From assembly GCA_022013675.1 (NCBI GenBank), contig JAKLPW010000138.1, positions 3,137-67,136 of the forward strand: a DNA stretch of 64,000 bases, written 5' to 3'. The notes under the pieces are model-generated. The model saw only the letters and a program-made list of their open reading frames with translations. It was not told the origin of the DNA and searched no databases. Both the position numbers and the translations under genes were made by a program. The stretch is from Anaerolineae bacterium (GTDB lineage Bacteria > Chloroflexota > Anaerolineae > JAKLPW01). Below are positions 1 through 41,407 of this stretch, piece after piece (positions within the stretch are counted from its first letter, which is position 1; each line of letters opens with the position of its first letter).

Positions 1-960
1 GGTCATGCTCCGCTTCAGAATCGTGGCACGCAGCCATTCGTTGCCCGACTCGATACCCACGCGGATCCCCTGACAGCCAGCGCTCGCCAGAGCCGCTACA
101 ACCTCCTCGTCGCTTTCGATGCGCTCCACTCGGGTGTTGATCCAGAAGGGGTAACCAAACTCCTCGCCGTACGCCTTACAGAACTCCAGGGTCCATTCAC
201 GGTCCAGCGTGAAGGTATCATCCTGAAAGTTAATGACTTTGATGGGATAGCGCTCCCGGATCGCCCGGATTTCGGCCATGACATGCGGCACACTACGAAA
301 GCGAACGTAGCGACCCAGGCCACGAAAGCGCTTCTTCAGTCCCGGATTGCAGCAGTACGAGCAGTTGTAGGGACATCCCCGGCCGCTCATCATATCAATC
401 CAGGCATCATTGTGGGCCAACATGTCGTCATAGTCAAAGATCTCGCGATCGGCAAAGGGCAGATCGTCCAGATCAGCTACCAGCGGGCGCAGCGGGTTGC
501 GGATCACCTCGCCGTTGCGCCTCAGCCAGAGGTTGCGCACGTCCACGTAGTCCTTGCCCTGTTCCAGGCGTTCCACCAGTTCGAGGATCGTGTGTTCTCC
601 CTCTCCCACACAGGCCGCATCAATGGATTCGCAGGCGATTACGTCTGCCGGGCTCAGGGTAGCGTGGGTCCCTCCCGAAAGGACGAAGACACCAGGATGA
701 TGCTGTTTCAGGACAGCGGCATACCGCTCGACGAAAAGATGCTGATGGGTGGTAGACGAGAACCCCACCAGATCAGGTGACTCCGCCTCCACCTCAGCCA
801 GGAATTCCTCTCCGGACAGTTCGCGCTGAAGGTATATCAGGCTGGTCTCGTGACCGGCCTTCTTGAGGACCGCCGAGACGTAGCCCACGCCGTGATAAAA
901 CTTGCGCGAGCCGTACCGTTCGACCCCGCTGACATCCGAATACACAAGTACGATCTTCAT
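1..960 (-). CDS. B12-binding-domain (class B) radical SAM enzyme; 3' end runs off the window
   Basis: Absent from the ORF track because there is no stop in the window. My own reverse translation from ATG (complement of 958-960) gives MKIVLVYSDVSGVERYGSRKFYHGVGYVSAVLKKAGHE... (Rossmann-like N-domain) and ...MMSGRGCPYNCSYCCNP (CxxxCxxC). The frame stays open to position 1. Paralog of 38750-40231. Confidence 0.8.
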   Translation of the reverse strand, partial: MKIVLVYSDVSGVERYGSRKFYHGVGYVSAVLKKAGHETSLIYLQRELSGEEFLAEVEAESPDLVGFSSTTHQHLFVERYAAVLKQHHPGVFVLSGGTHATLSPADVIACESIDAACVGEGEHTILELVERLEQGKDYVDVRNLWLRRNGEVIRNPLRPLVADLDDLPFADREIFDYDDMLAHNDAWIDMMSGRGCPYNCSYCCNPGLKKRFRGLGRYVRFRSVPHVMAEIRAIRERYPIKVINFQDDTFTLDREWTLEFCKAYGEEFGYPFWINTRVERIESDEEVVAALASAGCQGIRVGIESGNEWLRATILKRSMT

Positions 961-1001
961 TTCCCGTCTATCCAATCTGCCATTGTGAGTCCAGATCTGT
1001 C

Positions 1002-4000
1002 CTACTTCTTAATCATGGGCAAGAACCACGGCATAGGCCGAGCGCCAAAGTTCACCTCAATACTCCCACCGGCCGTCAGGTGCTCCTCCCACGTACTCTC
1101 GGTGGTGGAGAAATGCCCGGGGGGATCATATTCAGTCACCCGGTACGTAGCCGGGGCCAGCAGTTGAAAGTAGTAAACTCCATCAGGGCCCGTCAGGTAG
1201 GAAGCCACCTCTTCCCCGATAGCATTCGTTACTACTACAGTGGCCCCCGCCAGCATGTTCTCGCCAGCATCAAGTCTGCCGTTCTCATTCACGTCATTCC
1301 AAATGTATCCTTGCACAACACCGTACTGAGGTATGTCAGTCGCCGTAGGGGTAGGCGAGGCAATAAGTGTAGCGCTGGGCGTCAGTGTCGGCGTAGACGT
1401 AGATGTCGGCGTAGGCGTGATGGTGAGAGTGCTGGTGGGCAACGGAGTAGGGGTAGGCAGGGTGTACTTTAGAGTTAGCTCCGGACGCTTGCTGGTCGCG
1501 GAGTAATCTGATGACGCCACAGAATAGATCACCGACTGGCTACCAATGCCCTTGAGCGTCAGACCACGATTATCCTCCGGTGATGCTGCCCAATCCTGTG
1601 CCAGCGAGCGCAGGTTGAGAGTGACCCAACCTTCAGGGCTTTCCATCCTGACGGTCCCAGCAGGTAGGTCCACGCGATCCGTAGAACCCTTGGCCCCAGC
1701 TTCTTCCCACGCCTCTGCATCGCTGGCTTGATTCCAAGTAGCCTCATCCTCGACCCAATTGCGCAGCATCTTGTGGAAGGTACTATCCAAGGTGCGATCG
1801 TAGTTACGGCTGGTTATGTAGAGGCGCAGAAGAGCGGATTTCACGACAGCATTCTGCGGCACCTCGGAGAGCGGAAAGTAGATCAATGGCGAGTAGATGC
1901 TGTCGTGCTTGACTTTGAGCGTCCACTCACCATCGTAGTTACGGTCCTTTTCATATCCATACAGGTAGGTATCTTCCACGCCAGAATAACCATTAAGGCC
2001 CTGCTGATAGATCAGAGTGGTCAGCGTGCTGGCACCATCCGGATAGATATCGAAGCGATGCTCATTGCCGTTGGGCACAGAGACAGTGAGAATGCCACCA
2101 ACAGGCGCAACAACAGACAACGCATAGTCGCCGGCGGTGAGATCGTAGTCTTCAACGGTGTAGGAGACGCCCGGGTCCAGGCCCATCCAGTTCAGGTCGA
2201 AGCTAATCTCTACCGATGAATTGCGATCATCTGACACCGAAGCATTGATAATGCTCGTGTACGGGTCGTAGTTAGCTTCCACGTAGGTCCAGTAGTGGAC
2301 GCTCCCCGTCTGAGCGATATGCAGCCAGTAGTAGGACTTCGTCTCGTCCGTGCGTATCCTCAGCTCCCGTGGATTATCATTGAGCGTATAGCTGCCCAGG
2401 AAATCGAAGACCCAGTCGACTCCGTAGGGGAGAGGAGTACTATGATCACCCTCGTACCAGCAGAGACAGGTGTGATGATCGGCATCGTAGAAACAATCCA
2501 CCCACGGATACGAAGGCCCGATGGCATCGTAGAGGTCCTGGGCGTGGTGTGGATAGACGACCCCGTCAGACGTGCCATGCAGCATGGCAATGGGAACCTG
2601 CATCAGGTTCATACCCATGCTCTGGCTCGAGCGTCGCTGATACTCAAAGGGAGCCGTGGCCGGGGTATGACCGATCTCTTTTTCGATTGTATCGGAGCGA
2701 TAGCGCTGGGAAGGATCATTGAAGCATTCCCAATGCCAGGCGGCCAGATTAGTGGCCCCTTTCTCCTCCACCACCGCCGCGAAGACATCGGGATACTTGG
2801 CCGCTGTCGTGGCAGCGATCATCCCCCCCATTGACGGCCCGGTCAGATAGACACGCGAAGGATCCACCCTATAGGTGGCTTTCATGACATTCACCAGGTC
2901 AATGATGTCATGCTGTATAGGAAGTGAAGCGGTGTGCTGGCCCCGCAAGCCCGGCGCGGCCAGCAGCCAACCTCGTTCGTTTGCCTCCAGCCCCTTGGCG
3001 TAGACGGCATCAAGATGATTCGCACCCCACCAGGGCAAAGAGATGAGCAGCGGCACGTCCTCCTCACCAGTATAACTCGCGGGCACCTGCGCCATGGCCA
3101 GTTGTTGATGCCCGTCAAATGAGCTGGTTATGGCCCGATAGTCGTAGCGCGGCGCGTCCAGATCGCCCGCCACTACCAGTCGCGCATTAGTGGCCGACCA
3201 GGTCTTGTCACCCCAACTATCGTGGGCCTCCTCATCGTCGGTGATGGTAACCGTGTTCCACCCGGGCGTCAGAATCGCGGGGTCTATCTCCCACATTACT
3301 GTGTGTCCCGCAGCACAGAGAGCGCCGGAATCCCAGGACTCAGACACGCCTATTGACTGGCCATTGACCAGGATCGTGTTCTCGAACTTCACGCCGGCCT
3401 CATCCAGATACAGTCGAGCCCAGGTGGGATCGCCTTCCCAGATCAGCATCAGGTCTGCTGAGTCCGGGTAGTGCCCGGCTGGCCCCACGGTCATACAGTT
3501 AGAAACGGTAGAAGTGATGATGGCACGCGGGGTCGGCGTGGGGGTCGGTACCCCCGTAGGAAAAGGCGTTATTGTGGGCGTGCTAGTTGGTTCCGGAGTC
3601 ACGTCAGGCGAGACCTCGTAGATGACCATCAACTTAGGTAATTGAGATGCGCTACCGTGCTCCGAGGTCCAGAAGGAGCGCTTGATGTTGAGACCGCTGC
3701 CTGACCCCACCAGGATCATACCACGATTCTGTGCCGGGGTGGACACCCAATCCTGCACTAGATTGGTAATCTCCCAATTATACCATTGATTGGTTTCCTG
3801 GATCGTCGTTGTCCCCGCCGCACTGAAATGGCGATCACTGGTATCATCGGCGCCCTTCTGCCCCCACATGTCGCCGCTGCTGGCCATATACCAGCTCGCC
3901 TCCGTCTCTTCCCAGGGTCTGATGAGCTTGTACGCGGTCACCTGGAAGGGATCATTGCAGCGGCGCTCGCAATACCAGTTGGCATACAAGTATAGCCTGG

Positions 4001-4409
4001 CTTCCACCACATCGGCCCAGTAGGGAATGGACGAAATGTCAAAGCGAATGAGGGGCCGCATGATACCGGTGGAGATGACTTTCATGCCAGCATCCACCCC
4101 GTAGTTGTTCCACTCACTCCCAGCCTCCCCCAGAAGGAAAGTCTCTTCCACTCCAGTGTAATCCTGCGAGGGGCTGACTCCATATTGAAACCATACGCTG
4201 ACGCTCTGCTGATGGTACATCGCCGCCTGGCCACCGTCCGTTGAGCCAACATCGGCGTACTGACGCGGATACGTTTCATCCACATAGCCAGATATCTCCG
4301 CCGCAGCGCGAGCCTCTTCCCCATTGAGGACGAGCGCAAACACCACCAACAGAGTCAGACCTATCAGCGACGCCACGAAAGCGTGCAACCAGTTTCGATG
4401 TCTGTACAT
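1002..4409 (-). CDS. Secreted/anchored multidomain protein: 2x DNRLRE-like domain, alpha/beta-hydrolase (esterase/peptidase-like), Pro/Thr linkers, C-terminal SdrD B-like (Cna-B type) domain
   Basis: 1137-aa ORF. The track start at 4415 is GTG; ATG at 4409 gives MYRHRNWLHAFVASLIGLTLLVVFALVL (signal anchor). RPLIRFDISSIP...NRGMILVG and SPLIYFPLSEVP...DNRGLTLKG look like DNRLRE domains. GPSMGG nucleophile elbow, then HGTSDGVV. Linkers TPEPTSTPTITPFPTGVPTPTPTP and LPTPTPLPTSTLTITPTPTSTSTPTLTPS. GYIWNDVNENGRLDAGE...GPDGVYYF...YRVTE matches an SdrD B-like domain. Confidence 0.7.
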   Translation of the reverse strand: MYRHRNWLHAFVASLIGLTLLVVFALVLNGEEARAAAEISGYVDETYPRQYADVGSTDGGQAAMYHQQSVSVWFQYGVSPSQDYTGVEETFLLGEAGSEWNNYGVDAGMKVISTGIMRPLIRFDISSIPYWADVVEARLYLYANWYCERRCNDPFQVTAYKLIRPWEETEASWYMASSGDMWGQKGADDTSDRHFSAAGTTTIQETNQWYNWEITNLVQDWVSTPAQNRGMILVGSGSGLNIKRSFWTSEHGSASQLPKLMVIYEVSPDVTPEPTSTPTITPFPTGVPTPTPTPRAIITSTVSNCMTVGPAGHYPDSADLMLIWEGDPTWARLYLDEAGVKFENTILVNGQSIGVSESWDSGALCAAGHTVMWEIDPAILTPGWNTVTITDDEEAHDSWGDKTWSATNARLVVAGDLDAPRYDYRAITSSFDGHQQLAMAQVPASYTGEEDVPLLISLPWWGANHLDAVYAKGLEANERGWLLAAPGLRGQHTASLPIQHDIIDLVNVMKATYRVDPSRVYLTGPSMGGMIAATTAAKYPDVFAAVVEEKGATNLAAWHWECFNDPSQRYRSDTIEKEIGHTPATAPFEYQRRSSQSMGMNLMQVPIAMLHGTSDGVVYPHHAQDLYDAIGPSYPWVDCFYDADHHTCLCWYEGDHSTPLPYGVDWVFDFLGSYTLNDNPRELRIRTDETKSYYWLHIAQTGSVHYWTYVEANYDPYTSIINASVSDDRNSSVEISFDLNWMGLDPGVSYTVEDYDLTAGDYALSVVAPVGGILTVSVPNGNEHRFDIYPDGASTLTTLIYQQGLNGYSGVEDTYLYGYEKDRNYDGEWTLKVKHDSIYSPLIYFPLSEVPQNAVVKSALLRLYITSRNYDRTLDSTFHKMLRNWVEDEATWNQASDAEAWEEAGAKGSTDRVDLPAGTVRMESPEGWVTLNLRSLAQDWAASPEDNRGLTLKGIGSQSVIYSVASSDYSATSKRPELTLKYTLPTPTPLPTSTLTITPTPTSTSTPTLTPSATLIASPTPTATDIPQYGVVQGYIWNDVNENGRLDAGENMLAGATVVVTNAIGEEVASYLTGPDGVYYFQLLAPATYRVTEYDPPGHFSTTESTWEEHLTAGGSIEVNFGARPMPWFLPMIKK

Positions 4410-4659: not shown

Positions 4660-6648
4660 TCAGCGCACCAGCTCATAAACATGCACCGTATCCACACTGA
4701 TGGGATCCACGGGCACGCACCCTTCTATGACGTCGGACACCCTCTCTCCAAACCAGAGCGGCTCTTCCTGCACCGTCATGACGGGACGCAGTCGCCCGCT
4801 AGATTCGATAGCCGCAGAAACGATGCTCCAATTCTGATCCGGCAGGTCGCCCCACCCTGCATCGTAGGCTCCCTCTCCCACCAGCACCCAGCGCACCCCC
4901 CATGTGCGCAACAGGTCCAGCGTCTCGTCGGAGGGGAAATTGGCCAACTCCGCGTCCTTCACCGCCAGGAACTCCTCCGGATAGAAGGTGCCGTGGCCGT
5001 AGGCCATGGGGTGCCGGTGATATACCGAGCGATAGAGCATCGGACCATTAAGGCCCCGGATGAGCGGGAATTGCATGACCGCCCCTTCCCCCCATTTGGC
5101 CATGTGCTCATCCAAAAGTTGGGCTGCAGTCTTGGAGAAACCGTAAGGAAGCGGAAAAGATGCGAAATCAAAGAGCACCAGGGCAACCAGCAGACTCCCA
5201 AGCAGCGGAATGGGCATTCTTCGCCGGCCGCGTCTCCACGACTCTCCATCTTTGCTCGCGGGCACATCCAGTATAGCCTCATGTTTTTCCTCTTCCCGGG
5301 TGAACCCCAACGCGGCGACGCCCATTCCCGCCAGCACCGCGACCGCGAACACGGTCACTAGCCCGAAACGGTAAAGAGTGCGCATGCCACCTGCAAAGGG
5401 AACGAAGAGGTACGCCAACAAGGCCGGAAGCGGGACCATGATCGCATTGGTAGCTCGCAACGAGTGATACTCCGCAGGATTGAGCGCTAACCGGCCGGTG
5501 AGGACATACATAGCGCGCGAGAAAAGCCCCTCCACCCAGCCGGGGACGGGTATGTAAACCCGCTCTCCTCCCCAGTGTAGCGTCGTTCCCAGGGCAACAA
5601 CGAAAGACAGGCCCGCAATCCAGAGCAAAGCGCGCATCGCGGGTCGGGAACGATCCCATGACCGCAGTCCTATGAATGCCAGTACCAACGCCACCCAGCC
5701 AAGATAGACAAAGCCCGGCACATACCACGGATAGGAGGGAACGTGCCGTCGCGAAGAGAGCACGGCACGGCCCCAGATGGGATGGTACACATTGGGCAAA
5801 AAGAAATCTTCCAGGTTGGCGGCCCACTTCTCCACTTCTCGTAACGACCAACTCATCGTCGCACCGCCGCCACGGATAACCGGGAGGACCACGGGAGCAA
5901 CCAGCAACATGGACACAGTCCCCATCAGCAACACATTGCGCCAGACAACAGCATCCCTCAGACTCGTCCTCCAAGGCCAGAGACGCACTAGAAGATAGAG
6001 TGCCGCGAAAAGGCCCACCACGTAAGCATAGTACCAGGAGGATAGGACGTTCACGGCCAGGAGAACTCCCGACCCAATGGCAAAACGGGCTTTTCTCTCC
6101 CTCAACATTCGTTCCAGGCTCAGAAAGAGCAATGGTATCCATTGAGTCGATATGAGAGGCAGCCACCCCGCCGCCATGGCGTGCATGCGGTAGGGGCAAT
6201 AGGCAAAAATGACCCCCGCAATGACACCCGCCCACTTGCTGCCGGTCAGGTATGTCACCAACAAGTACATGCCCAGGCCCGACAGCACAAAGGAGAGGAA
6301 GAGCAGGCTGTTGAACGCGACCACTTCGTTGCCCAGGATCAGGATCGGAAAGATAAGCGCCTTGTTGGCCAGCATCGTCTCAGAAAGGGAGAGAGCATAG
6401 CCAAAAGGATAGAACATCTCTGGGTTGAAGACCGGCCACTGATGCAAATCCACCAACGAGTGCTTGAACCACCAGAGATCGTAGAGCCACACGAAGTTAT
6501 CCCAAGGTGGTCCCGGAACGGCAGTAGTGAAGTGGCGCGCTAGGGGATAGGTCATCACCAAGGTGAGCGAGGTGAAGAACGCAACAACCCCCAGAATGAC
6601 TCTCCAGCTTCCCCATTTCGGTTGGTTGGACTGTGCCTTTGTATTCAT
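4660..6648 (-). CDS. Large polytopic membrane protein, GT-C-like glycosyltransferase candidate (unclassified); paralog of 31736-33700
   Basis: 662 aa with an ATG start. Many hydrophobic segments, then a late TM (MPIPLLGSLLVALVLFDFASFPL) and a ~180-aa soluble tail. The N-terminal block TYPLARHFTTAVPGPPWDNF...FYPFGYALSLSETMLAN aligns by eye with TYPLVLHLSTAIMGPPGDNF...FYPFGYHVALSETTLSN of 31736-33700. Confidence 0.55.
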   Translation of the reverse strand: MNTKAQSNQPKWGSWRVILGVVAFFTSLTLVMTYPLARHFTTAVPGPPWDNFVWLYDLWWFKHSLVDLHQWPVFNPEMFYPFGYALSLSETMLANKALIFPILILGNEVVAFNSLLFLSFVLSGLGMYLLVTYLTGSKWAGVIAGVIFAYCPYRMHAMAAGWLPLISTQWIPLLFLSLERMLRERKARFAIGSGVLLAVNVLSSWYYAYVVGLFAALYLLVRLWPWRTSLRDAVVWRNVLLMGTVSMLLVAPVVLPVIRGGGATMSWSLREVEKWAANLEDFFLPNVYHPIWGRAVLSSRRHVPSYPWYVPGFVYLGWVALVLAFIGLRSWDRSRPAMRALLWIAGLSFVVALGTTLHWGGERVYIPVPGWVEGLFSRAMYVLTGRLALNPAEYHSLRATNAIMVPLPALLAYLFVPFAGGMRTLYRFGLVTVFAVAVLAGMGVAALGFTREEEKHEAILDVPASKDGESWRRGRRRMPIPLLGSLLVALVLFDFASFPLPYGFSKTAAQLLDEHMAKWGEGAVMQFPLIRGLNGPMLYRSVYHRHPMAYGHGTFYPEEFLAVKDAELANFPSDETLDLLRTWGVRWVLVGEGAYDAGWGDLPDQNWSIVSAAIESSGRLRPVMTVQEEPLWFGERVSDVIEGCVPVDPISVDTVHVYELVR

Positions 6649-6698
6649 AGTTGTACGGGTGTGAGCGGGTTAGCGATCAGCGGTCAGCGATCAGCTCT

Positions 6699-6830
6699 CG
6701 TTGGGTGAGGTCTCCCGACCGAACCCCTCTCCGTTGGGTGAGGTCTCCCGACCAAACCCCTCTCCGTTGGGTGAGGTCTCCCGACCGAACCCCTCTCCGT
6801 TGGGCGAGGTCTCCCGACCGAACCCTCTCA
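6699..6830. repeat. Tandem array A: 4 x 33-bp units cgttgggtgaGGTCTCCCGACCgaacccctctc
   Basis: Units start at 6699, 6732, 6765 and 6798, and the first three are near-identical. The array abuts the stop codon (6828-6830) of the GT2 gene and fills the gap to the next start (6648). Confidence 0.9.
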
Positions 6831-7583
6831 CCCATCATCCTCAGAAGACTGGACGGAAGCGGATCGAGGGAGTGAAGCCTCCGGCAAGGCTGTCCGCCTC
6901 GAGCCGGTCCACACCTGCCAGCGTTTCCAAAAGAGAAAGAGAAGATTGCCCACGCCGTCGCCCCACAGATTAAGCTTGCTCTCCCCAACCCTTGCCGTGT
7001 AATAAATGGGCAACTCTCGCGAGACTAGATCATCGCGAAGAAAGGCCTCGATCTTGAGTTCTTCCGACAGTGACATCCCATCGCTGGTTGCGTTCAGCAA
7101 AGGTAGAACAGACCGCTTGAAGACCCACATCCCTGACTGGGAATCATGCAAACGAATGCCAAAAAGGAGCAGGACGAAGATGTTTAGCAGCCGATTGCCG
7201 AATACGCGCAAGGCGGTGCCCGCCCCACTGCTCTTGTGCCCTGTTCGATCGCACGTAATGAAGTCTATCTCCTCGTCGAACATTACATCCAGTAGGACGG
7301 GAATAAAGTTGCGTGGATACGTTCCATCGCCGTCCATCGTGACGATGATATCCCCACTGGCAGCCTTGAAGCCGGCCTTGTAGGCGGCCCCATAGCCTTG
7401 CCTCCCCTCGAAGACGACTGTTGCTCCCAATTCGCGCGCAACCTTGGCCGTGTCATCCGCGGAGTTGTTGTCCACGACAATGACCTCGTCGACCAGGTCG
7501 GGCATGTCCGACATCACTACCGGGATACCATCTTCCTCATTGTAACACGGCACAACTACGGAAATCGTGCGGCCTTTATACAC
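6828..7583 (-). CDS. GT2 glycosyltransferase, polyprenyl/dolichyl-phosphate sugar synthase-like
   Basis: ISVVVPCYNEEDGI...VIVVDNNSADDT...GQGYGAAYKAGF...IVTMDGDGTYP (GT-A DxD region). GTG start preceded by gaggggga. Confidence 0.8.
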   Translation of the reverse strand: MYKGRTISVVVPCYNEEDGIPVVMSDMPDLVDEVIVVDNNSADDTAKVARELGATVVFEGRQGYGAAYKAGFKAASGDIIVTMDGDGTYPRNFIPVLLDVMFDEEIDFITCDRTGHKSSGAGTALRVFGNRLLNIFVLLLFGIRLHDSQSGMWVFKRSVLPLLNATSDGMSLSEELKIEAFLRDDLVSRELPIYYTARVGESKLNLWGDGVGNLLFLFWKRWQVWTGSRRTALPEASLPRSASVQSSEDDG

Positions 7584-8818: not shown

Positions 8819-8925
8819 ATTATTGTAATACCTCCAACAGTAATGACTAATAGCTCACTATTATACCATAGATGATAGATGATAGAACAGCCCGATTTTG
8901 GTTATGGGGACAGGGTTCTTCCCCT

Positions 8926-10047: not shown

Positions 10048-10172
10048 AATCCTTCCCTGGGAATCATTTCGCACTGCGCGCGCATATCAACCCTGTGCAT
10101 TATACTACACCAATCTGAACGAGAAGTGAAAATGGCCAAGGCCGGTATTACAATATCTTCATACCTTCGTCC

Positions 10173-11002: not shown

Positions 11003-11013
11003 GAGTATACCCT

Positions 11014-27788: not shown

Positions 27789-27820
27789 AGCCCTCTACAT
27801 CGTTGTGCCTGCGCCATCCC

Positions 27821-28016: not shown

Positions 28017-28064
28017 TACCACAGAGCGCAGCAAGCAGCGCCCCCAACGAGGATTTCCGACTAT

Positions 28065-28256: not shown

Positions 28257-28309
28257 TCACCCCTTTCTTCTGGCACCACTGAGGTGCTGTTTACACTATC
28301 TCCATCTCG

Positions 28310-35278: not shown

Positions 35279-35989
35279 TCACTTCCCGATGCGACTGTCC
35301 AGGCGAAACCGCCAGACTTTCCATAGAGCCTCGCGCACAATGCTACCCGACATCTTGGACTCCCCTACTCGCCGGTCCACGAAGACGATAGGTACCTCCA
35401 CCAAACGGAAGCCTCGCCGGAAAGCCCTGTATTTCATCTCGATCTGAAAAGCATAACCATTGGATGTGACTGCATCCAGGTCCACTGCCTCCAGCACATC
35501 TCGCCGCCAGCAATTGAAGCCACCCGTCAGGTCCCATATCGGCATGCCCAGGATGACCCTGGCGTAGAGACTCCCTCCGCGGCTGATCAACTGGCGGACA
35601 AGTCCCCAGTTCTCCGTCCCTCCACCCGAAACGTAGCGGGACCCCACGACCACATCAGTTGCCCGGGCCGCTTCGAGTAGGCTGGGGATGTAAGCGGGAT
35701 CGTGCGAGAAATCGGCATCCATCTCAAAGACGTACTGCGCACCTTGCTGCAAGGCATACTTGAATCCTGTGATGTAGGCGCTGCCCAATCCCATTTTACC
35801 TTGGCGATGGATAACGTGCACTCGCTCATCGCGAACAGAGAGAGCATCGGCGATCTCCCCCGTGCCATCAGGCGAGTTATCATCCACGATGGCAACGTGC
35901 ACGTCCACCGGTTGACTCAGGACGGCCTCCGCTATCTTCTCCATGTTCTCGCACTCATTGTAGGTTGGAATAACTACCATGACCTGCAT
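35279..35989 (-). CDS. Polyprenol-phosphate mannose synthase-like GT2 (Ppm1/DPM1 type)
   Basis: MQVMVVIPTYNECENM...VAIVDDNSPDGTGEIA...GKMGLGSAYITGF...FEMDADFSHDP. ATG at 35989 is preferred to the track start at 36037. Confidence 0.85.
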   Translation of the reverse strand: MQVMVVIPTYNECENMEKIAEAVLSQPVDVHVAIVDDNSPDGTGEIADALSVRDERVHVIHRQGKMGLGSAYITGFKYALQQGAQYVFEMDADFSHDPAYIPSLLEAARATDVVVGSRYVSGGGTENWGLVRQLISRGGSLYARVILGMPIWDLTGGFNCWRRDVLEAVDLDAVTSNGYAFQIEMKYRAFRRGFRLVEVPIVFVDRRVGESKMSGSIVREALWKVWRFRLDSRIGK

Positions 35990-36040
35990 GGGCAACCTCT
36001 GCTCCCCTCTACCACCGAAGCTAATACTCATGAGCAAGAC

Positions 36041-37534
36041 TCATCGCTCGATCTGATACAGCACTACCCTCCCAACGCCACGATACTCCCACGCACCCAG
36101 ACGCGAGTAGAGGGAGTCCAACTCCTGCTCCAGGAGTCCCTCCGGATCGGTATAGTGACCCGGCTCATGAATCAGCCACAGGCGACGATGCCCTGCCAGA
36201 TGCTCCGCCAACACCTCTTCCAGACCCTCTTCCGGCAATGGCACCGGGGCATCCCCATAGACGTCCACTACTCCCTGAGCATAGTAATCGAAGGGCTTGA
36301 CATTCCAGCCCGGACTGAACATGACCACATCGCCCGATTCAGACCGTTCGACGACGTAGGCTGCAGTACTGCGCCAGTCAGGATTCTGCGCCTCTCGCAC
36401 GTTAATGAACACTCCCACGGCCTGGGTCAACGCCAGCAGAACCACAAGTCCCCAGCGCACCCAGGGCCATCGCACCACCGTTGCGCCTCGCGCCACCAAG
36501 AGCAGAAACGCCGGTAAGAAAGGAAGTAGATAACGCATAGCATACATCGGCTTCCATTGCGACAGTACCCACGCCGTCCCTAAAGGCACTACCAGATATG
36601 CGACGACGAAAACAAGTGCTTGAGTATTTGAGAGGCGTGCCTGCGATGACTCGCGCTTTCTCACCCCCAGGGACGCTAAAGCCCCACAGGCCCCAAAGAG
36701 GAGATAGGCCGCACGCCGGGCCAGGGACGGGTACCAATGCCGCGTCATGCCGATGATGTAGGCCATGGCTGTGTGCACAAGGACATCAATCGGTGGCGCA
36801 CCCAGGGAACGAGCCACCCACCCGCCCCCTCCCTGGCTCACCTGCCGCACAAGGACCGGCAACCAGGGAGCGAAACACAACGACACCGCAGCCTGGGCTG
36901 GGATCCACCCCCCCAGAGTTCGGCGCCACTGGGAATCCGTCAAGCAAAGATACGCCATGAAGAGATTCTGAAACAGAACGATGAAAAAGGCATAGTAGTG
37001 CGTATACAGGCTCAGAGAAGTAGTGAGCACATATCCGACCCAGGCCGGCCAGCCCTTGCCCCTCAACAACTCCAACATACAATAGGCCGAACACGTGGTC
37101 AGCAATGCGAGTAGCGCGTACATGCGCGTCTCTTGCGAGTACCACAAGTGAAAAGGAGAGAGAGCCAGTAACAGCGCGCCCGCCAACCCGGTCGCTCGAT
37201 CAAAAAGCGAACGGCCAATACCATACACGAGAGGCACCGTCAGCGTCCCGGCCAGGGCAGAAAGGGCCCTGATGGCCCCCTCACTGCTCCCGAGAGCCAG
37301 CCAGTAGTGCAGTAATGAGTAGTAGAACGGAGGATGGATGTCCACCGCAGTCCAGCCGACCATCTCGCGCAGCTCCATCCGAGCCAGAAAGAGGCTGGTC
37401 GCTTCGTCCAGCCAGAGGCTCTCGCCCCCTAGATGATAGAAGCGTACCAATGCCGCCATAGCGGTAATCAGAGCCACCGCGAGCATCCAGATATCCTCTC
37501 GTGACCGATCGTGCAACTTCAGGTACGTCACCAA
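36041..37534 (-). CDS. GT39-like GT-C membrane glycosyltransferase
   Basis: SLWLDEATSLFL...HPPFYYSLLHYWLALG...IRALSALAGTLTVPLVYGIGRSLF...LSPFHLWYSQETRMYAL. Confidence 0.7.
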   Translation of the reverse strand: MVTYLKLHDRSREDIWMLAVALITAMAALVRFYHLGGESLWLDEATSLFLARMELREMVGWTAVDIHPPFYYSLLHYWLALGSSEGAIRALSALAGTLTVPLVYGIGRSLFDRATGLAGALLLALSPFHLWYSQETRMYALLALLTTCSAYCMLELLRGKGWPAWVGYVLTTSLSLYTHYYAFFIVLFQNLFMAYLCLTDSQWRRTLGGWIPAQAAVSLCFAPWLPVLVRQVSQGGGGWVARSLGAPPIDVLVHTAMAYIIGMTRHWYPSLARRAAYLLFGACGALASLGVRKRESSQARLSNTQALVFVVAYLVVPLGTAWVLSQWKPMYAMRYLLPFLPAFLLLVARGATVVRWPWVRWGLVVLLALTQAVGVFINVREAQNPDWRSTAAYVVERSESGDVVMFSPGWNVKPFDYYAQGVVDVYGDAPVPLPEEGLEEVLAEHLAGHRRLWLIHEPGHYTDPEGLLEQELDSLYSRLGAWEYRGVGRVVLYQIER

Positions 37535-37751: not shown

Positions 37752-38759
37752 TCAAGAATGTTGTACCGGTATGTTCCCCTGCGCGGTGAAGAGCGTCGGT
37801 TTCCACCAAGCCCACTCCACGCATTTGCTGCACGAAGGCACATTCTCAAGATCGTTGCGCAAATGCTTGCGGCGCAACTCCGCCATCTGAGGCCCGCGCC
37901 ACGCTTTCATTACCCCATTGGCCACATTCCCTAACGGATAGCTGGCATTGAAATCCCGATCGCACGACATCAGAGTGCCATCCCAATAGATGTGCACGTG
38001 GTACCATAGATTGGGGCAGTGGAAACGCGGTGGGAGAGCAATCTCCTTCTCCGGTCGCAGTCCGCTGATGTCCTCTACCTGGTCGCCCCACGAATCGAAA
38101 GCCTTGACATTGACCCGATCCACGCCGGGCATCCTCCAGATGCGCCCGAATTCCTCGATCTCGTCCAGAGTGGGCTGAATCTCAATGATCTGGACCTTGA
38201 CCTCCGGGCGTGGGTAGCCACCAGCATGTCGTAGTTCAATGAACCTGAGAATGTTCGCCCTGGTCTCTTCAAAATCCGCACTGCGCCGGATCTTCTCGTA
38301 GGTTTCGGGTCTGGTGCCATCCAGACAGAGGTAGATAGTGCCTAATCCGGCCTCCAGGATTTCCTGGCTGATCTCCGGCGTGAGAAGCGTAGCGTTGGTG
38401 GATATCTCCGCGTGCAGCCCCTTCTCGCGACAGTAGGCGATCATCTCCACGATTCGAGGATGGAGCAAGGGCTCACCCCAAATGTGAAGCGTCGTCGCCT
38501 TGACATGGGGAGCCATCTCATCCACGACCTGCCGGAAGAGATCGTAATCTATGAAACCCTTCTTCCGAGTGACCTGTCCCAGGCCGGTTGGGCACATGAT
38601 GCAGCGGAGATTGCAGATATTGGTGGATTCGAGATACATCCGATCAGGGTACGTCCAGGGCCGCGTGTTGCCCAGGGTGTAATTGGCCCATTTGGCTGCC
38701 ATGGTAGCGCGACGTTTATAACGACGAATCCGATTGTCCACTCTGGTTGCTATGCCCAC
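37752..38759 (-). CDS. Radical SAM enzyme with SPASM/twitch-like C-terminal domain
   Basis: LESTNICNLRCIMCPTG (CxxxCxxC); CPNLWYHVHIYWDGTLMSC (Cx12Gx4C); CSKC near the C-terminus. Overlaps the upstream gene by 10 nt. Confidence 0.8.
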   Translation of the reverse strand: MGIATRVDNRIRRYKRRATMAAKWANYTLGNTRPWTYPDRMYLESTNICNLRCIMCPTGLGQVTRKKGFIDYDLFRQVVDEMAPHVKATTLHIWGEPLLHPRIVEMIAYCREKGLHAEISTNATLLTPEISQEILEAGLGTIYLCLDGTRPETYEKIRRSADFEETRANILRFIELRHAGGYPRPEVKVQIIEIQPTLDEIEEFGRIWRMPGVDRVNVKAFDSWGDQVEDISGLRPEKEIALPPRFHCPNLWYHVHIYWDGTLMSCDRDFNASYPLGNVANGVMKAWRGPQMAELRRKHLRNDLENVPSCSKCVEWAWWKPTLFTAQGNIPVQHS

Positions 38760-40231
38760 TCTCTGGTCCTTTCCTTCCGAAAACTTCCCAACCCACCCAG
38801 TAAACGACTGTTAAGAATCGCACACCCAGCCACTCGAACCAGCCGCAGGCGGGAAACCTGCCATAGAGCTGTTCCCCATAGTTTGCCAAAGGCCCTGACA
38901 TATTTACGTTTGCGCTTTCCCTCAGCGAACGTCCGTTTGGCTTTCGCGGCCACGCGACTCAGAGCCTGATCGGACACCTCCGAGACATTCAGGAAAGGCT
39001 CAATCTCCTCGGCATAGTTGTTGTAGTAGTAGGCGCGGCTGAAGTCCTGGTTGAACTGGATCTCGGGACGCTTCGCCACCAACTCGCTCCACAAACGGGT
39101 GCCCGGGAACGGCGTCGTTAGGCTGAACATGGCATCATCTAGATCCAACTCGGCAGCAAAATCAATGGTCTGCCGCATCGTGGCCTCAGTGTCGCCAGGA
39201 AGTCCCAGCATGAAGTATCCCTTGGACCGAATGCCCGACTGTGCCGTCCAGGTCACGGCCTGGCGCACTTGGTCCTTGGTGATACGTTTCCCAATGGCCG
39301 CCAGGATCTCGTCGTTGCCCGACTCAATTCCATAATGTATCTGGCGACAGCCGGAGCGGTACATGAGATCGAGAACCTCCGGGTCCACGCGATCCACGCG
39401 GCCCAGACATTGCCACCGAATGATCAGGCTCTCGTCAATAATGCGCTGCGTAATAGCTTTCAGACGCTTGCGATTAATAGTGAACAGATCATCGATGAAG
39501 TAGATGTTGGCAATGTCATATTGACTGATGATCTGACGCAGTTCGGCAATGATGTTATCAGTGCTTCGCTGGCGATACGTACGCCCGACTATGCCCTTGA
39601 AGCAATAACTGCAATTGTAGGGACAGCCTCGACTGGAGAGCACCGTAATCATACGCTCACCATCCGGAGCATAGAGCGGATAGGCTTTCAGATCAAACAG
39701 ATGTCGCGCCGGCGAAGGCAGTCCGTCCAGGTCACGGATCAGAGGGCGATCAGGATTGCACTGCACAACACCATCCTGCATATAGCAAAGTCCCTGGATA
39801 GCAGCCAGTGTCCCATCGGACGGGCGCGGCCCTTCCGACTCCAGCGCACGTACCAGCTCAATGATCGTCGCCTCCCCTTCACCATAGACCAGGTAATCCA
39901 CAAACGGCTCCTGGGTCACCCGCTCAGGAAAAACGGTGGCATGGGGTCCACCAATGACCAGAGGACAACCAACGCGCTCCTTGACAAACTCCGCCGTCTC
40001 AGCCACTGCGTGGTACGTATTGGTCATGGCAGTGATGCCCACCAACTGGGGATCGAACTCGCCTAACTCTTCTATCTGTTCCGATAGAGGCCGGTCCGGA
40101 TAAAGTCCAAAATCGTGAACGCGGACTTCGTGTCCTTCGCGTTCCAGCACCGCGGCCAGGTAAGCCAATCCCAACGGCGGATAGCTATTCACCATCTTAT
40201 TCCATTTGGGAGAAATGAGCGATACTCTCAT
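38750..40231 (-). CDS. B12-binding-domain (class B) radical SAM enzyme
   Basis: MRVSLISPKW...PPLGLAYLAAVLEREGHEVRVHDF (B12-binding-like domain); VLSSRGCPYNCSYCFKG. ATG at 40231; the track extension to 40543 overlaps the SGNH C-terminal ORF. Confidence 0.8.
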   Translation of the reverse strand: MRVSLISPKWNKMVNSYPPLGLAYLAAVLEREGHEVRVHDFGLYPDRPLSEQIEELGEFDPQLVGITAMTNTYHAVAETAEFVKERVGCPLVIGGPHATVFPERVTQEPFVDYLVYGEGEATIIELVRALESEGPRPSDGTLAAIQGLCYMQDGVVQCNPDRPLIRDLDGLPSPARHLFDLKAYPLYAPDGERMITVLSSRGCPYNCSYCFKGIVGRTYRQRSTDNIIAELRQIISQYDIANIYFIDDLFTINRKRLKAITQRIIDESLIIRWQCLGRVDRVDPEVLDLMYRSGCRQIHYGIESGNDEILAAIGKRITKDQVRQAVTWTAQSGIRSKGYFMLGLPGDTEATMRQTIDFAAELDLDDAMFSLTTPFPGTRLWSELVAKRPEIQFNQDFSRAYYYNNYAEEIEPFLNVSEVSDQALSRVAAKAKRTFAEGKRKRKYVRAFGKLWGTALWQVSRLRLVRVAGCAILNSRLLGGLGSFRKERTREWA

Positions 40232-40250: not shown

Positions 40251-40793
40251 TCATGATCCGGACGTAGCTGGCTCACGTGCTTCCAGCGCGTCCACCAGAG
40301 AGCGAGCAACGAGTTCATGCCCGCTATAGTTCCAATGCCCCCAGTGCAGTTCCTTTCCGTGAGTCTCGTAGTCCTTCCTGAAGATACTCTGCAGCCCGAT
40401 AAATCCAACGCCCAGCTCCTCCGAGTACGACCGAAGATCGTCCTCAAAGAAGCATGGATCAAATGTCGAATCGATCTCCCGATACCTCTCCTCCACCATT
40501 GGGAGATGCGCGTCGTTATCAGATACGACAAGCACGAACTCAATGCCCTCGCTCTTGCAGATACCGGCCATTTCCCTGAGTAGAATCTTATTCAGCTCAT
40601 AGCTCCTGGAGTATGACTCATCGGGATCGGACGTACACAGGCTAAGAAAACCGGTAATCGAGGCAGGCTGGGGACTCTCCCCACCTTCTTCCCCCTCGTC
40701 TATACGTCTGTTCAGTCTATAGACATTGTATCGGTTAGAGATGAGCGAAACCAATGCTGAGCGCTGCTTTATGTAGTTTATCCTCGATCTCAT
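40251..40793 (-). CDS. SGNH hydrolase, C-terminal half (frameshifted/split gene)
   Basis: INYIKQRSALVSLISNRY parallels FLREHSAFYSFLVRRY of the intact paralog 28310-29506. The C-terminal HWNYSGHELVARSL resembles block V. The start overlaps the stop of 40790-41407 as ATGA. Confidence 0.6.
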   Translation of the reverse strand: MRSRINYIKQRSALVSLISNRYNVYRLNRRIDEGEEGGESPQPASITGFLSLCTSDPDESYSRSYELNKILLREMAGICKSEGIEFVLVVSDNDAHLPMVEERYREIDSTFDPCFFEDDLRSYSEELGVGFIGLQSIFRKDYETHGKELHWGHWNYSGHELVARSLVDALEAREPATSGS

Positions 40794-41407
40794 TTCATAT
40801 CATACTCAGATGTGTTCGAGAAACTAGTGTCAAGCACTAGTTGCCCTTCATCAGAAACACTGAAGAACGGGCGAGATTTATTGGGGGCTGTCTCCCTGCT
40901 CACTTCTGCAATGTCGTTCCCCGGGAAGAAGAACAGTATCACCATGTCGGGCTTAAACCTAAGAATGTCCCGTCTTAGGACGATCAGCTCTTCTGATTGC
41001 GTGAAACCGGACCTGCCAAAAGTCATCAACTCAAAAGCGTTCGCAGAGGTTCTGTTGAGTTCCTTTTCGGCAAGGGCCAAGAACGTTCTTTCTAACTCTA
41101 CTTGAAACGCCTCCACGAAGCTATCGCCCAGGACAGCTACCCTGTAGGTGTTCTCAGGCTTCTCTAATGCCCATTCATCGTCTCGCCATCCATAGTTGTT
41201 CATTCTTCCTGTGATGGGATGGTCATTCTCTCTGTTGTACCAGTATTCGCAATTGGGAGTGAATCGATATCCGATTTCCTCATCTGGCTCAGAGCAGCTC
41301 AGGCAAGCACCAAAGAGGTGAGTACGTCTTAGCAACACTTCCAGGGCAAGCAGCGTAAGCACGATACTTACCACACATATCCACAGGTTAACTAATCTCT
41401 CCCGCAT
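40790..41407 (-). CDS. SGNH hydrolase, N-terminal half (frameshifted/split gene)
   Basis: N-terminal TM. VAVLGDSFVEAF (block I), FGRSGFTQ (II), FFFPGNDIAE (III). Ends ...TSEYDMK* in an a-rich tract. Visibly lower GC than its neighbours. Confidence 0.6.
   Translation of the reverse strand: MRERLVNLWICVVSIVLTLLALEVLLRRTHLFGACLSCSEPDEEIGYRFTPNCEYWYNRENDHPITGRMNNYGWRDDEWALEKPENTYRVAVLGDSFVEAFQVELERTFLALAEKELNRTSANAFELMTFGRSGFTQSEELIVLRRDILRFKPDMVILFFFPGNDIAEVSRETAPNKSRPFFSVSDEGQLVLDTSFSNTSEYDMK

Follow-up and report, generated by a model that had tools for sequence, protein, structure and literature searches.

What does a bacterium do with 11 membrane glycosyltransferases of the GT-C type and five radical S-adenosylmethionine (SAM) enzymes in one run of genes, and on which molecule do they act? 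This question is raised by 64,000 nucleotides of contig JAKLPW010000138.1, from a metagenome assembly (hereafter the window, in whose coordinates all positions are given; genes are named by their first coordinate), of which positions 1-41407 carry the array. It is most likely an envelope-glycosylation locus of an uncultured Chloroflexota bacterium of the order Ardenticatenales, with 31 genes packed into 41 kb on one strand. The reading that we prefer, and hold with somewhat more belief than doubt, is that of a cell-envelope glycosylation locus made of repeated modules, each combining a GT2 glycosyltransferase, cytoplasmic tailoring, a flipping step and a GT-C transferase, that act on a wall polysaccharide or lipoglycan.

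The preliminary description of this stretch, drawn from its letters alone, counted 11 GT-C-like proteins and named transporters as what they might turn out to be instead. The count holds: nine of the 11 are recognized by Pfam (two of them weakly, 31736 falling below the cut-off and 23827 matching only at its C-terminal end), and the two least clear, 15220 and 4660, were assigned through AlphaFold models and Foldseek. The 11 genes are as follows.

4660-6648, minus strand: GT-C of the YfhO/PTPS_related/DUF6311 type with a C-terminal globular domain (Pfam YfhO 36.5 bits; AlphaFold; Foldseek)
13405-15099, minus strand: GT-C, PMT_2, loop 1 KWDEPDY (Pfam; paralogue of 18525)
15220-16833, minus strand: GT-C, LA_3751/3752-like, without a Pfam family (NCBIfam 61.9 bits; AlphaFold and Foldseek)
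16859-18445, minus strand: GT-C, PMT_2, loop 1 WRDE (Pfam 55.5 bits)
18525-20231, minus strand: GT-C, PMT_2, loop 1 WGDEPFY, start at 20231 or 20201 (Pfam 50.6 bits; synteny)
20763-22031, minus strand: GT-C, GT87, PimE-like, loop 1 NNHDF (Pfam PF09594 109.3 bits against a cut-off of 25; PDB PimE 9dm5 27 bits)
23827-26226, minus strand: GT-C, YfhO-like, 799 aa (Pfam YfhO 40.2 bits, C-terminal end only)
26313-27785, minus strand: GT-C, ArnT-like PMT/PMT_2, loop 1 NWDEATY (NCBIfam ArnT 87.5 bits, cut-off 567; PDB 5ezm 82)
31736-33700, minus strand: GT-C, DUF6311/YfhO-like, paralogue of 4660 (Pfam below cut-off; BLASTP)
33697-35196, minus strand: GT-C, PMT_2, loop 1 WFDE, distantly like the MT1671 mannosyltransferase (Pfam, NCBIfam)
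36041-37534, minus strand: GT-C, PMT_2, loop 1 WLDE (Pfam, motif)

Six of these proteins (13405, 16859, 18525, 26313, 33697 and 36041) are, as was proposed, PMT_2 members with an xDE motif in the first loop (WDE, GDE, RDE, FDE or LDE; Pfam 38-56 bits against a cut-off of 26); 26313 is ArnT's nearest sequence relative in the set, and 13405 found no solved sequence relative at E<=1 in a PDB sequence search. The GT87 assignment of 20763 likewise stands on its 109.3 bits, and its 49.8 bits against the PRK13375 mannosyltransferase model (cut-off 413) do not make it an equivalog. The proposal that 23827 is YfhO-like is borne out for its C-terminal end, to which the Pfam match is limited; BLASTP aligns it with 4660 at 26% over 319 aa. 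Protein 4660 lies above the cut-offs for YfhO and PTPS_related, its paralogue 31736 lies below both, and a precomputed annotation calls the latter DUF6311. Protein 15220 has no Pfam match but a 62-bit NCBIfam match to the Leptospira LA_3751/3752 putative glycosyltransferase family. All 11 have 7-12 transmembrane (TM) segments in a hydropathy scan and all 11 have an aspartate in loop 1, which in 4660/31736 stands in PPWDNF/PPGDNF (D50 invariant in the alignment), in the NNHDF of 20763 (H52 and D53 invariant), next to I51 as a nearly invariant I51-D52 in 15220, and in EWDPYE in 23827.

Are the least clear members glycosyltransferases or transporters? AlphaFold returned helical bundles for both (15220 from a 45-sequence alignment with pLDDT 85.4 and pTM 0.88; 4660 with pLDDT 90.6 and pTM 0.91). 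Foldseek matched 15220 to ALG9, ArnT, AftB, ALG3, STT3 and Pmt4 at probability 1.00 and to PimE at 0.98, with query TM-scores of 0.34-0.47, against at most 0.18 probability for transporters; 4660 matched STT3, AglB, PglB, AftD (query TM-score 0.54), DPY19, ArnT, Emb and AftA at probability 1.00, and ALG12 as well. Only GT-C proteins were thus matched at high probability, and by their predicted structures both are GT-C enzymes, not transporters; the TM-scores are modest (0.34-0.54), and the other nine proteins were judged from Pfam and NCBIfam. An oligosaccharyltransferase role for 4660 and 31736, suggested by the fold matches, was dropped, no WWDYG-type motif being visible. Paralogue identities of 42% (4660/31736), 36% (13405/18525), 33% (33697/36041) and 30% (16859/36041) argue that the enlarged cluster is partly a product of duplication. 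In other phyla, the distant homologues of 15220 that were checked are solitary, without similar clusters. At the 5' end of 13405, a perfect 15-nt repeat present 4.3 times (15008-15072) specifies (QVADK)n within the cytoplasmic N-terminus, which may vary in length here.

If the transferases work outside the membrane, what feeds them? Three to four lipid-phosphate-sugar synthases had been proposed, and the following genes bear on that proposal.

6828-7583, minus strand: GT2, AglJ/dolichyl-phosphate-hexose-transferase-like (NCBIfam AglJ 119.9 and DPhHxTase 118.2 bits, both below cut-off; Pfam GT2 94)
9055-10047, minus strand: GT2 with three C-terminal TM helices, EpsD/MftF/GT21/HpnI-like (Pfam, NCBIfam, hydropathy)
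20209-20613, minus strand: DUF2304 small 3-TM protein, GacJ/Rv3632 family (Pfam PF10066 86.7 bits against a cut-off of 25.5)
22033-22911, minus strand: CE4 polysaccharide deacetylase with DUF3473 (DUF3473 123, Polysacc_deac_1 73 bits; TIGR03006 248, cut-off 276)
22898-23653, minus strand: GT2, PpgS-like candidate polyprenyl-phosphate-N-acetylhexosamine (HexNAc) synthase (PpgS 111.5 bits, cut-off 370; dolichol-phosphate-mannose synthase, DPMS, 71; ArnC 48)
35279-36031, minus strand: GT2, dolichol/polyprenol-phosphate-mannose-synthase-like (PDB DPMS 5mlz 138 bits; Pfam GT2 114.8)

Three of the proposed synthases, 35279, 22898 and 6828, are indeed DPMS-, PpgS- and AglJ-like, PpgS being the best NCBIfam match of 22898. 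The fourth, 9055, is not of the Ppm kind: with its C-terminal TM helices and EpsD/MftF/GT21 resemblance it is possibly a lipid- or polymer-directed glycosyltransferase, and its GT21/HpnI likeness suggests that it could make a glycolipid primer. By their positions, 35279 between two PMT_2 genes and 6828 beside a YfhO-type GT-C gene, these two GT2 enzymes would supply two further donors. The part of the mechanism with the best support is the core around 22898. The DUF2304 members GacJ and Rv3632 bind and stimulate GT2 polyprenyl-phosphate-HexNAc synthases; these make polyprenyl-phosphate-GlcNAc or -GalNAc, whose sugar a GT-C enzyme hands on at the outer side of the membrane (bioRxiv 10.1101/180810; PMC9671496). 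In the mycobacterial pathway the lipid-linked GalNAc needs deacetylation by an enzyme that is unidentified (PMC9671496). Here the CE4/DUF3473 protein 22033, which carries neither signal peptide nor TM helix and is therefore probably cytoplasmic, is encoded between synthase and GT-C, overlapping the GT2 gene by 14 nt and separated from the GT87 gene by 1 nt. The set GT2/CE4/GT87/DUF2304 follows the logic of ArnC/ArnD/ArnT, PpgS/Rv3632/Rv3779 and GacI/GacJ/GacL, and the verdict that the array cannot be mapped to a described pathway was, for this core, too pessimistic.

The core is also what relatives share. Related loci (given L numbers here) were found from GT87 homologues and by an alignment-based scan of species-representative genomes, and all window proteins were compared with 21 loci by tblastn; a first genome scan with the single GT87 protein returned no relative, and it was the GT87 alignment that found them. 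The conserved order is YfhO, GT2 (35279-like), GT2 (22898), CE4/DUF3473, GT87, DUF2304, PMT_2 (18525), PMT_2 (16859), PMT_2 (13405) and radical SAM (11991). Order and orientation of the block are unchanged in L006/7/15, L012, L013, L014, L017, L018 and L019, with GT87 identities of 38-49%, and it is syntenic in about 10 Ardenticatenales/Chloroflexota genomes with two to three PMT_2 copies, the carriers being uncultured Ardenticatenales, Ardenticatenaceae, Anaerolineae or Chloroflexota. An 18525-type PMT_2 gene follows DUF2304 in most loci (in L011, L017 and L018 a 13405-type gene does, with the 18525-type next), the 23827-like YfhO gene is kept upstream of the GT2 genes, and the DUF2304 gene is present in all related loci compared. 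Orthologues of 11991 come directly after a 13405- or 18525-type PMT_2 gene in L006/7/15, L009-L014 and L017-L019. The minimal invariant set, as in L008 and L016, is GT2 (22898), CE4, GT87, DUF2304 and PMT_2, and the core conserved across the order spans about 13-17 kb; the window holds the largest version of the locus among those compared.

Beyond the core, retention varies. L004 (70%) and L009/L010 (72%) also keep the SGNH, DUF5989, ArnT-like, 15220, SDR and hexapeptide genes, and L011 (38%) keeps the SDR and hexapeptide genes, GT2 (9055) and SPASM (7652), the 7652 orthologue being 73% identical and standing at the end of L011; GT2 (9055) follows the hexapeptide gene in L011 and L022. Nucleotide-aminosugar genes have been added in relatives (within the block, DegT and GNAT in L011 and UDP-GlcNAc 2-epimerase/Epimerase_2 in L008; a nucleotidyltransferase in L006). 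The nearest kin is GCA_043825035.1, a Chloroflexota metagenome-assembled genome (MAG) in which carbamoyltransferase 29641 is identical: its 12-kb contig L001 has the gene order of window 28-41 kb at 99-100% identity, and its second contig, L022, overlaps window 1-13.3 kb. In L009 and L004 (about 72%) the CE4 gene is of another, DUF3473-less type and stands before the GT2 gene, and at L009:5158-7212 and 8171-8920 (also in L004) lie an extra GT-C gene with TMEM260_N, PMT_2 and ILEI and an opposite-strand SAM methyltransferase gene; these differences indicate that module content is fluid even among close relatives. L019 (JAOSJS010000001.1), from the Ardenticatenaceae MAG FR_9, carries the core block on a single contig of 10.4 Mb, very large for Chloroflexota. 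In L021, a Pseudomonadota MAG, a GT87 homologue of 25% identity (2415-4205) lies about 6 kb from a carbamoyltransferase gene (10001-11026) whose product is 47% identical to 29641, which hints at a linkage of GT-C and carbamoyltransferase genes outside Chloroflexota.

What, in turn, are the radical SAM enzymes doing there? The five that had been announced are genuine (CX3CX2C in all five), are kept beside GT-C genes in relatives, and stand with further cytoplasmic enzymes. The carbamoyltransferase, hexapeptide acyltransferase, CE4 deacetylase, short-chain dehydrogenase/reductase (SDR) and SGNH hydrolases of the preliminary description all found their families in Pfam and NCBIfam.

1-975, minus strand: B12-binding radical SAM enzyme, N-terminal 325 aa, running off the window start (Pfam B12-binding 75.6, Radical_SAM 55.2 bits; CPYNCSYC)
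7652-8818, minus strand: radical SAM/SPASM enzyme (Pfam Radical_SAM 45.3, SPASM 19.4 bits; PDB SkfB and BlsE about 30 bits)
10328-11002, minus strand: hexapeptide-repeat acyl/acetyltransferase, WbbJ/WcaF-like, cytoplasmic (Pfam, NCBIfam; called as a 224-aa gene in L022)
11014-11994, minus strand: extended SDR reductase/epimerase, HpnA-like, cinnamoyl-CoA-reductase type (HpnA 313 bits, cut-off 368; PDB 3wj7 209)
11991-13343, minus strand: radical SAM enzyme, AprD4-like, with a weak B12-like N-terminal domain (AprD4 112 bits, cut-off 500; PDB 6fd2 89.8, residues 1-398)
29641-31332, minus strand: carbamoyltransferase, NodU/CmcH type, cytoplasmic (Pfam 311 and 241 bits)
37752-38759, minus strand: radical SAM/SPASM enzyme (Radical_SAM 66.3, SPASM 45.2 bits; PDB BlsE 42, DesII 29 bits)
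38750-40231, minus strand: B12-binding radical SAM enzyme, class B (B12-binding 78.9, Radical_SAM 87.1 bits; PDB AprD4 117 bits, TsrM, TokK)

Three of the five have sugar-acting enzymes as their nearest relatives with a solved structure or curated model (AprD4 for 11991 and 38750, BlsE/DesII for 37752). Protein 11991 (motif CDDLCAYC) has AprD4 as its best NCBIfam match and aligns with it over its full length (6fd2); its B12-binding domain scores 31.0 bits, below the cut-off of 32.1, as is expected for an AprD4-like protein. We regard it as a candidate sugar diol-dehydratase. Its gene shares an ATGA with that of SDR 11014, and since AprD4 and the NADPH reductase AprD3 together deoxygenate an amino sugar (PMC5461906), our preferred reading, by analogy, is that 11991 and 11014 would perform an AprD4/AprD3-like deoxygenation. 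By their strong B12 domains, 38750 and the gene at 1-975 can be assigned to class B, in which C-methylation is the commonest activity; 38750 scores 207 bits against BchE and 179 bits against HpnJ, both below cut-off, and the full-length counterpart of the truncated gene is a 474-aa protein at L022 12711-14135. Rfam at gathering thresholds gave no match in the window, the cobalamin riboswitch and all other riboswitches included. The radical SAM enzymes, SDR, acetyltransferase and carbamoyltransferase lack signal peptides and TM segments and should therefore act in the cytoplasm, on nucleotide or lipid-linked sugars. The following genes encode proteins of the membrane or its outer side.

1002-4409, minus strand: secreted multidomain protein (DNRLRE 164 bits, CBM96 66.6, Peptidase_S9 48; position kept in L022)
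28065-28256, minus strand: DUF5989 small 1-TM protein (Pfam 68 bits; same position in L004 and L009)
28310-29506, minus strand: SGNH/GDSL hydrolase with an N-terminal membrane anchor (Pfam Lipase_GDSL_2 51.2 bits)
31392-31634, minus strand: 80-aa 1-TM open reading frame (ORF) (no Pfam match; called as a gene in L001 and L002)
40251-41407, minus strand: SGNH-like hydrolase in two ORFs with an ATGA overlap (40790-41407, N-terminal part with TM anchor; 40251-40793, C-terminal part)

The 1135-aa secreted protein, which found no match in an exact-protein look-up, comprises a signal/TM segment, two DNRLRE/CBM96 domains, an alpha/beta esterase, an SdrD-B domain and Pro/Thr-rich linkers, and SGNH protein 28310 probably acts extracytoplasmically, judging from its anchor. 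The split of the second SGNH gene recurs in the independent contig L001; it could reflect a two-part protein or a recent pseudogene. Two tiny single-TM proteins, DUF5989 at 28065-28256 and the 80-aa ORF at 31392-31634, flank the carbamoyltransferase/SGNH pair; such small proteins presumably stand beside carbamoyltransferases elsewhere too, for example as sxtJ/K of the saxitoxin genes.

How might these parts work together? The observations comprise gene families and motifs, the GT-C fold, translational packing and synteny kept among relatives, and from them we infer the identity of the donors, the chemistry of each tailoring enzyme, the site of tailoring, the flippase and the acceptor; the organism is uncultured, and every functional statement made here comes from homology, structure prediction and synteny. 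On the cytoplasmic face, GT2 enzymes 22898 (aided by DUF2304 protein 20209), 35279 and 6828 would load single sugars on polyprenyl phosphate, and tailoring would take place in the cytoplasm on this lipid carrier, or earlier on the nucleotide sugar. CE4/DUF3473 protein 22033 would convert HexNAc to the free amino sugar, as ArnD does on undecaprenyl-phosphate-Ara4FN (Und-P-Ara4FN), such that the core sequence would run from polyprenyl-phosphate-HexNAc to polyprenyl-phosphate-HexN, flipping, and transfer by GT87 and/or PMT_2. AprD4-like 11991 and the coupled SDR 11014 would dehydrate and then reduce the sugar, which would thereby lose a hydroxyl; C-methylation is the most likely task of the B12-dependent enzymes 38750 and 1-975; oxidation, epimerization or decarboxylation would fall to the two SPASM enzymes (7652 and 37752); and hexapeptide transferase 10328 and carbamoyltransferase 29641 would add acetyl and carbamoyl groups. 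The donors would then be flipped, a Wzx/MOP-family gene just past the window start being a candidate flippase, the 11 GT-C transferases would add the sugars to the acceptor outside the membrane, and trimming or acylation of the product would follow, by the membrane-anchored SGNH enzymes and the secreted CBM96/esterase protein. As acceptor, a polysaccharide associated with the wall or anchored to a lipid is most probable, and the Pro/Thr-rich linkers of secreted proteins are less so; in a rough division of belief, a polysaccharide or lipoglycan is moderately favored, protein is possible but doubtful, and what is left falls to looser or mixed arrangements. Parts of this scheme have precedent, in that auxiliary enzymes can modify lipid-linked donors and MOP-family proteins can flip them (PMC11127046; GacK, bioRxiv 10.1101/180810). 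A bolder version, which we put forward as a rather doubtful possibility, has all five radical SAM enzymes join the SDR, the CE4 enzyme and the acetyl- and carbamoyltransferases in tailoring polyprenyl-phosphate-bound sugars into deoxy, C-methyl and amino donors without nucleotide-sugar counterparts, and the 11 GT-C enzymes polymerizing these into an Ardenticatenales-defining lipoglycan or wall polymer akin to lipomannan/lipoarabinomannan (LM/LAM) or arabinogalactan.

How does this compare with what is known? In the Arn pathway of Enterobacteria (ArnC/ArnD/ArnE-F/ArnT, lipid A L-Ara4N), undecaprenyl phosphate receives an N-acylated amino sugar from a GT2 enzyme, a CE4 enzyme deacylates this sugar and a GT-C enzyme transfers it outside; specifically, the CE4-superfamily member ArnD deformylates Und-P-Ara4FN ahead of ArnT. 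Genes 22898, 22033 and 20763 are packed alike, but the GT-C gene adjoining the deacetylase here is GT87, not GT83, the scores fall far below equivalog (ArnT 87 bits against 567, ArnC 51 against 529), no ArnA, ArnB or ArnE/F families occur in the window, and the CE4 gene has no ArnD match. To our knowledge, Chloroflexota are generally held to lack lipid A, and hence the acceptor must differ from that of Arn. Another parallel is with PpgS (Rv3631)/Rv3632/Rv3779 for the GalN of mycobacterial arabinogalactan and with GacI/GacJ/GacK/GacL of Streptococcus pyogenes, which share the set of GT2 synthase, DUF2304 activator and GT-C enzyme; in the group A carbohydrate system a Wzx-family protein flips the donor. 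Here, however, DUF2304 follows the GT-C gene rather than the GT2 gene, the module is set among ten further GT-C genes, and a deacetylase gene lies between GT2 and GT-C, where mycobacteria have an enzyme yet to be identified (PMC9671496).

Mycobacterial and corynebacterial LM, LAM and arabinogalactan assembly (PimE, MptA-D, EmbA-C, AftA-D, Ppm1) likewise employs many GT-C enzymes that extend a glycan outside the membrane from donors made by DPMS-like GT2 enzymes, and one of those donors, decaprenyl-phosphate-arabinose (DPA), is made by modifying a lipid-linked sugar. The mycobacterial GT-C genes are dispersed on the chromosome, with at most about four adjacent; they are not known to have partners of the radical SAM, carbamoyl or CE4 kinds, and the proteins here show marginal identity to the mycobacterial ones (PimE 27 bits, MT1671 52-56 bits). 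Three-component systems (GtrA/GtrB/Gtr*, CsbB/GtcA/YfhO, Pgf, GT136 pentofuranose) follow the same logic of synthase, flippase and GT-C, with YfhO members here too, and auxiliary enzymes can diversify their donors (PMC11127046); they usually comprise one synthase and one GT-C enzyme for a single side-chain sugar, whereas this locus has three to four synthases, 11 GT-C enzymes and about 10 tailoring enzymes. Apramycin C3'-deoxygenation by AprD4/AprD3 likewise pairs a radical SAM enzyme bearing a B12-like N-terminal domain with an NAD(P)H reductase; here the AprD4 score is 112 bits against 500 and the context is an envelope glycan, not an aminoglycoside cluster. All parts come from known families and work by the logic of transmembrane glycosylation systems with several components, while the size of the locus and the conserved radical SAM partner are unusual. 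No characterized locus, whether among these systems or in the literature, matches it gene for gene, in line with the preliminary description. We found no precedent in the literature searched for a conserved radical SAM gene directly after PMT_2 genes, no full-text paper linking GT-C arrays with radical SAM enzymes and no description of such loci in Chloroflexota, bearing in mind that a gap in the literature searched does not prove that such work is lacking.

The shape of the locus itself informs its interpretation. That every gene from 1 to 41407 is on the minus strand, as was claimed, holds for every family-supported gene (ORF listing, translation, Pfam and NCBIfam scans): with refined starts, the 31 minus-strand genes make 93.6% of this region coding, and GC skew is negative across it, in agreement with the coding strand. 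The nine long plus-strand ORFs within it are all antisense to supported genes and, having no Pfam match (0 of 9), were discarded as antisense shadows; ORFs 27346-28260 and 54041-54700 were discarded as spurious for their low-complexity translations, the former also overlapping repeats and real genes. The gene list first given was incomplete, as it missed three small membrane genes (DUF2304 at 20209-20613, DUF5989 at 28065-28256 and the 80-aa ORF at 31392-31634), and its ORF starts for 38750, 18525, 11014, 10328, 20763 and 9055 were over-extended. The overlaps it quoted are present (ATGA at 11991-11994 and 33697-33700, 10 nt at 38750-38759 and 14 nt at 22898-22911), and another ATGA overlap lies at 40790-40793. 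Gaps of 173-280 nt between blocks, some filled with tandem repeats, suggest several transcription units rather than one. Nor does the cluster end at position 1. Contig L022, of the same organism's MAG, reaches position 19011 on that side and carries, beyond the window start, a SAM methyltransferase gene, a Polysacc_synt (Wzx/MOP) gene at about 1.2 kb and two GT4 glycosyltransferase genes; from this content the cluster is longer than first stated, with polysaccharide genes of conventional kinds right next to it. The truncated gene at 1-975 also served as query for a metagenome scan past the window start, which returned short contigs only. At the other end, the minus-strand run goes on as far as about 53.5 kb, where its genes are unrelated ones for regulators and surface proteins, and a tRNA search of the window found none and hence no tRNA island border.

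Which explanation, then, fits best? The extracytoplasmic, lipid-carrier-fed assembly line first envisaged stands as regards the GT-C fold, the DPMS/PpgS/AglJ-like GT2 enzymes and the radical SAM partners, but that it forms a single line is not borne out: the locus is modular, with paralogue pairs at 30-42%. The main rival of the preferred reading concerns the acceptor. The PMT_2, YfhO and oligosaccharyltransferase-like GT-C enzymes might instead place tailored sugars on Ser/Thr of Pro/Thr-rich linkers, as actinobacterial Pmt/Ppm1 and streptococcal Pgf do, and such protein O-glycosylation, which we consider rather doubtful, would suit the six PMT_2 enzymes with their PMT/ArnT-type DE motif, the nearness of the 4660 model to the oligosaccharyltransferases STT3, AglB and PglB, the weak matches of 23827 to PgfM1/PgfM2, the linker-rich secreted protein 1002-4409 inside the cluster with 46495 and 48493 just upstream, and the extra TMEM260_N/PMT_2 protein of L009. 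Yet the GT87, ArnT-like and AftD-like relatives use glycolipid or polysaccharide acceptors, a set of 11 transferases with so much tailoring implies that the glycan is long or branched and not a short O-mannosyl chain, inspection of the 4660 translation by eye showed no WWDYG-type motif, and the neighboring Wzx and GT4 genes and the CBM96/DNRLRE-esterase protein within the cluster indicate polysaccharide, to which the extracytoplasmic SGNH enzymes, the GT21/HpnI-like GT2 9055 as a possible maker of a glycolipid primer and, as context, the Bac_transf phosphoglycosyltransferase at 56232 can be added. Linkers rich in Pro and Thr are, moreover, common in Chloroflexota proteins generally.

A different objection is that there may be no one pathway at all. 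The array could be a duplication-fed hotspot of independent modules (a GT2 gene with one or two GT-C genes), each decorating an envelope polymer of its own with one side-chain sugar, for instance to vary the surface against phages, with the block of radical SAM, SDR, hexapeptide and GT2 (9055) genes making a separate product such as a modified membrane glycolipid. We think this unlikely, although it would account for the paralogue pairs 4660/31736, 13405/18525 and 33697/36041 (42%, 36% and 33%), the differing module content of relatives, the repeat-bearing gaps of 173-280 nt between blocks, the solitary homologues of 15220 in other phyla, the HpnA likeness of SDR 11014 (313 bits), the GT21/HpnI likeness of 9055 and the scores of the B12-radical SAM enzymes against HpnJ and the ladderane-type lipid radical SAM family. 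Against it stands the order of PMT_2 then radical SAM (11991), kept in at least nine loci and directly after the GT87/DUF2304 core, which argues that the radical SAM block and the GT-C genes are linked in function. The hopanoid and ladderane models were, apart from HpnA, missed widely (HpnJ 94.7 and 178.6 bits against 577.6; HpnB and HpnI at most 52 bits), and the window, to which this search was confined, contains neither a squalene-hopene cyclase nor HpnH. A hopanoid- or ladderane-like lipid pathway as the principal explanation was rejected on the same grounds, with only HpnA nearing its cut-off and no cyclase in the window. That the array is mostly decaying, or an assembly chimera without coherent function, is very improbable: the SGNH split (40251/40790), the HTH transposase-like fragment at 41901 and the metagenomic source would fit, but every other ORF is intact and has the full length of its family, coding sequence makes up 93.6% of the region, and the same order recurs at 99-100% identity in the independent assemblies L001, L002 and L022 and at 38-89% in many others. 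By this synteny the last explanation is close to refuted.

The preferred reading, of repeated modules acting on a wall polysaccharide or lipoglycan, has its own difficulties. We know of no precedent for radical SAM action on polyprenyl-linked sugars, and these enzymes could instead act on nucleotide sugars, lipids or peptides. Pfam and NCBIfam scans found no GtrA/GtcA, ArnE/F or Wzx flippase among the window genes, and the window has no LCP ligase and no same-strand priming enzyme. No curated equivalog cut-off was reached (PpgS 111 bits against 370, ArnT 87 against 567, AprD4 112 against 500, HpnA 313 against 368, XrtA-type deacetylase TIGR03006 248 against 276), and specific activities are therefore not assignable. 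Conservation is confined to the core, the distal third (28-41 kb) occurring only in the near-identical L001/L002 and piecemeal elsewhere, and the split SGNH gene means that part of the array may be decaying. Finally, scans for sigma-70 promoters (12 against 9.0 and 4 against 9.4) and intrinsic terminators (23 against 16.7 and 20 against 17.0) gave counts no better than those of shuffled controls, so no operon boundaries were drawn.

Several further features of the window deserve mention, among them repeats in the gaps.

6695-6829, no strand: intergenic tandem repeat, 33 nt x 4.2, core GGTCTCCCGACC
10206-10313, no strand: intergenic repeats of the GGTCTCCCGACC family, 25 nt x 3
27818-28016, no strand: intergenic tandem repeat, 28 nt x 7.1, core GGTCTCCCGACC

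The core GGTCTCCCGACC (4-bp stem, 4-nt loop) is shared by tandem arrays (33, 25 and 28 nt) in four gaps, the three above and 29539-29580, and occurs also at 55276, 56535 and 58795, with 18 matches in all against 0.57 expected by chance. Among the fetched loci it is found only in the same organism's contig L022 and thus looks like a species-specific REP-like element. At the cluster's upstream border, after a 493-nt gap, 41901-42386 encodes a 161-aa HTH_32/HTH_23 transposase-like protein without a catalytic domain, which may be a mobile-element remnant. Farther upstream on the same strand lies a GAF-PAS histidine kinase gene (42824-45226), with an OmpR-type response regulator gene beyond it (52859-53566); a kinase with 60% identity in its C-terminal part is encoded at L008:1-1934, directly upstream of that relative's cluster, and the GAF-PAS kinase is a possible dedicated regulator. 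Between 45382 and 52809, again on the same strand, are genes for three proteins predicted to be secreted or on the surface, which are possible glycosylation substrates: one has BNR/Sortilin repeats, another is a TPR protein whose tail of 60 aa is rich in Pro and Thr, and the third, 1438 aa long, contains five beta-barrel domains of the OmpL47 type. On the plus strand, 55216-58734 encodes a GT2 enzyme, a Bac_transf polyprenyl-phosphate phosphoglycosyltransferase with CoA_binding_3 (226 bits) and a protein of the SdrD-B/CarboxypepD_reg kind; a second polysaccharide pathway, of conventional type, seems to begin here and could provide the primed acceptor.

What would all of this mean for the biology of these bacteria? 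The locus would reveal a new principle only if its radical SAM enzymes act on lipid-linked sugars; if they do act on lipid-linked or other envelope sugars, radical SAM carbohydrate chemistry would extend from antibiotic pathways to envelope assembly, and action on the lipid-linked donors themselves would be a type of reaction new to envelope biogenesis. The CE4/DUF3473 enzyme encoded between a PpgS-like GT2 enzyme and a GT-C enzyme offers a candidate type for the deacetylase missing from the mycobacterial GalN pathway (PMC9671496). For structural work and glycoengineering, the array offers, within a small space, a variety of GT-C enzymes together with the donor synthases that match them. The envelope polymers of Chloroflexota are essentially uncharacterized, and a locus found across an order provides a genetic handle on one of them and a good lead into the envelope biology of an unstudied order.

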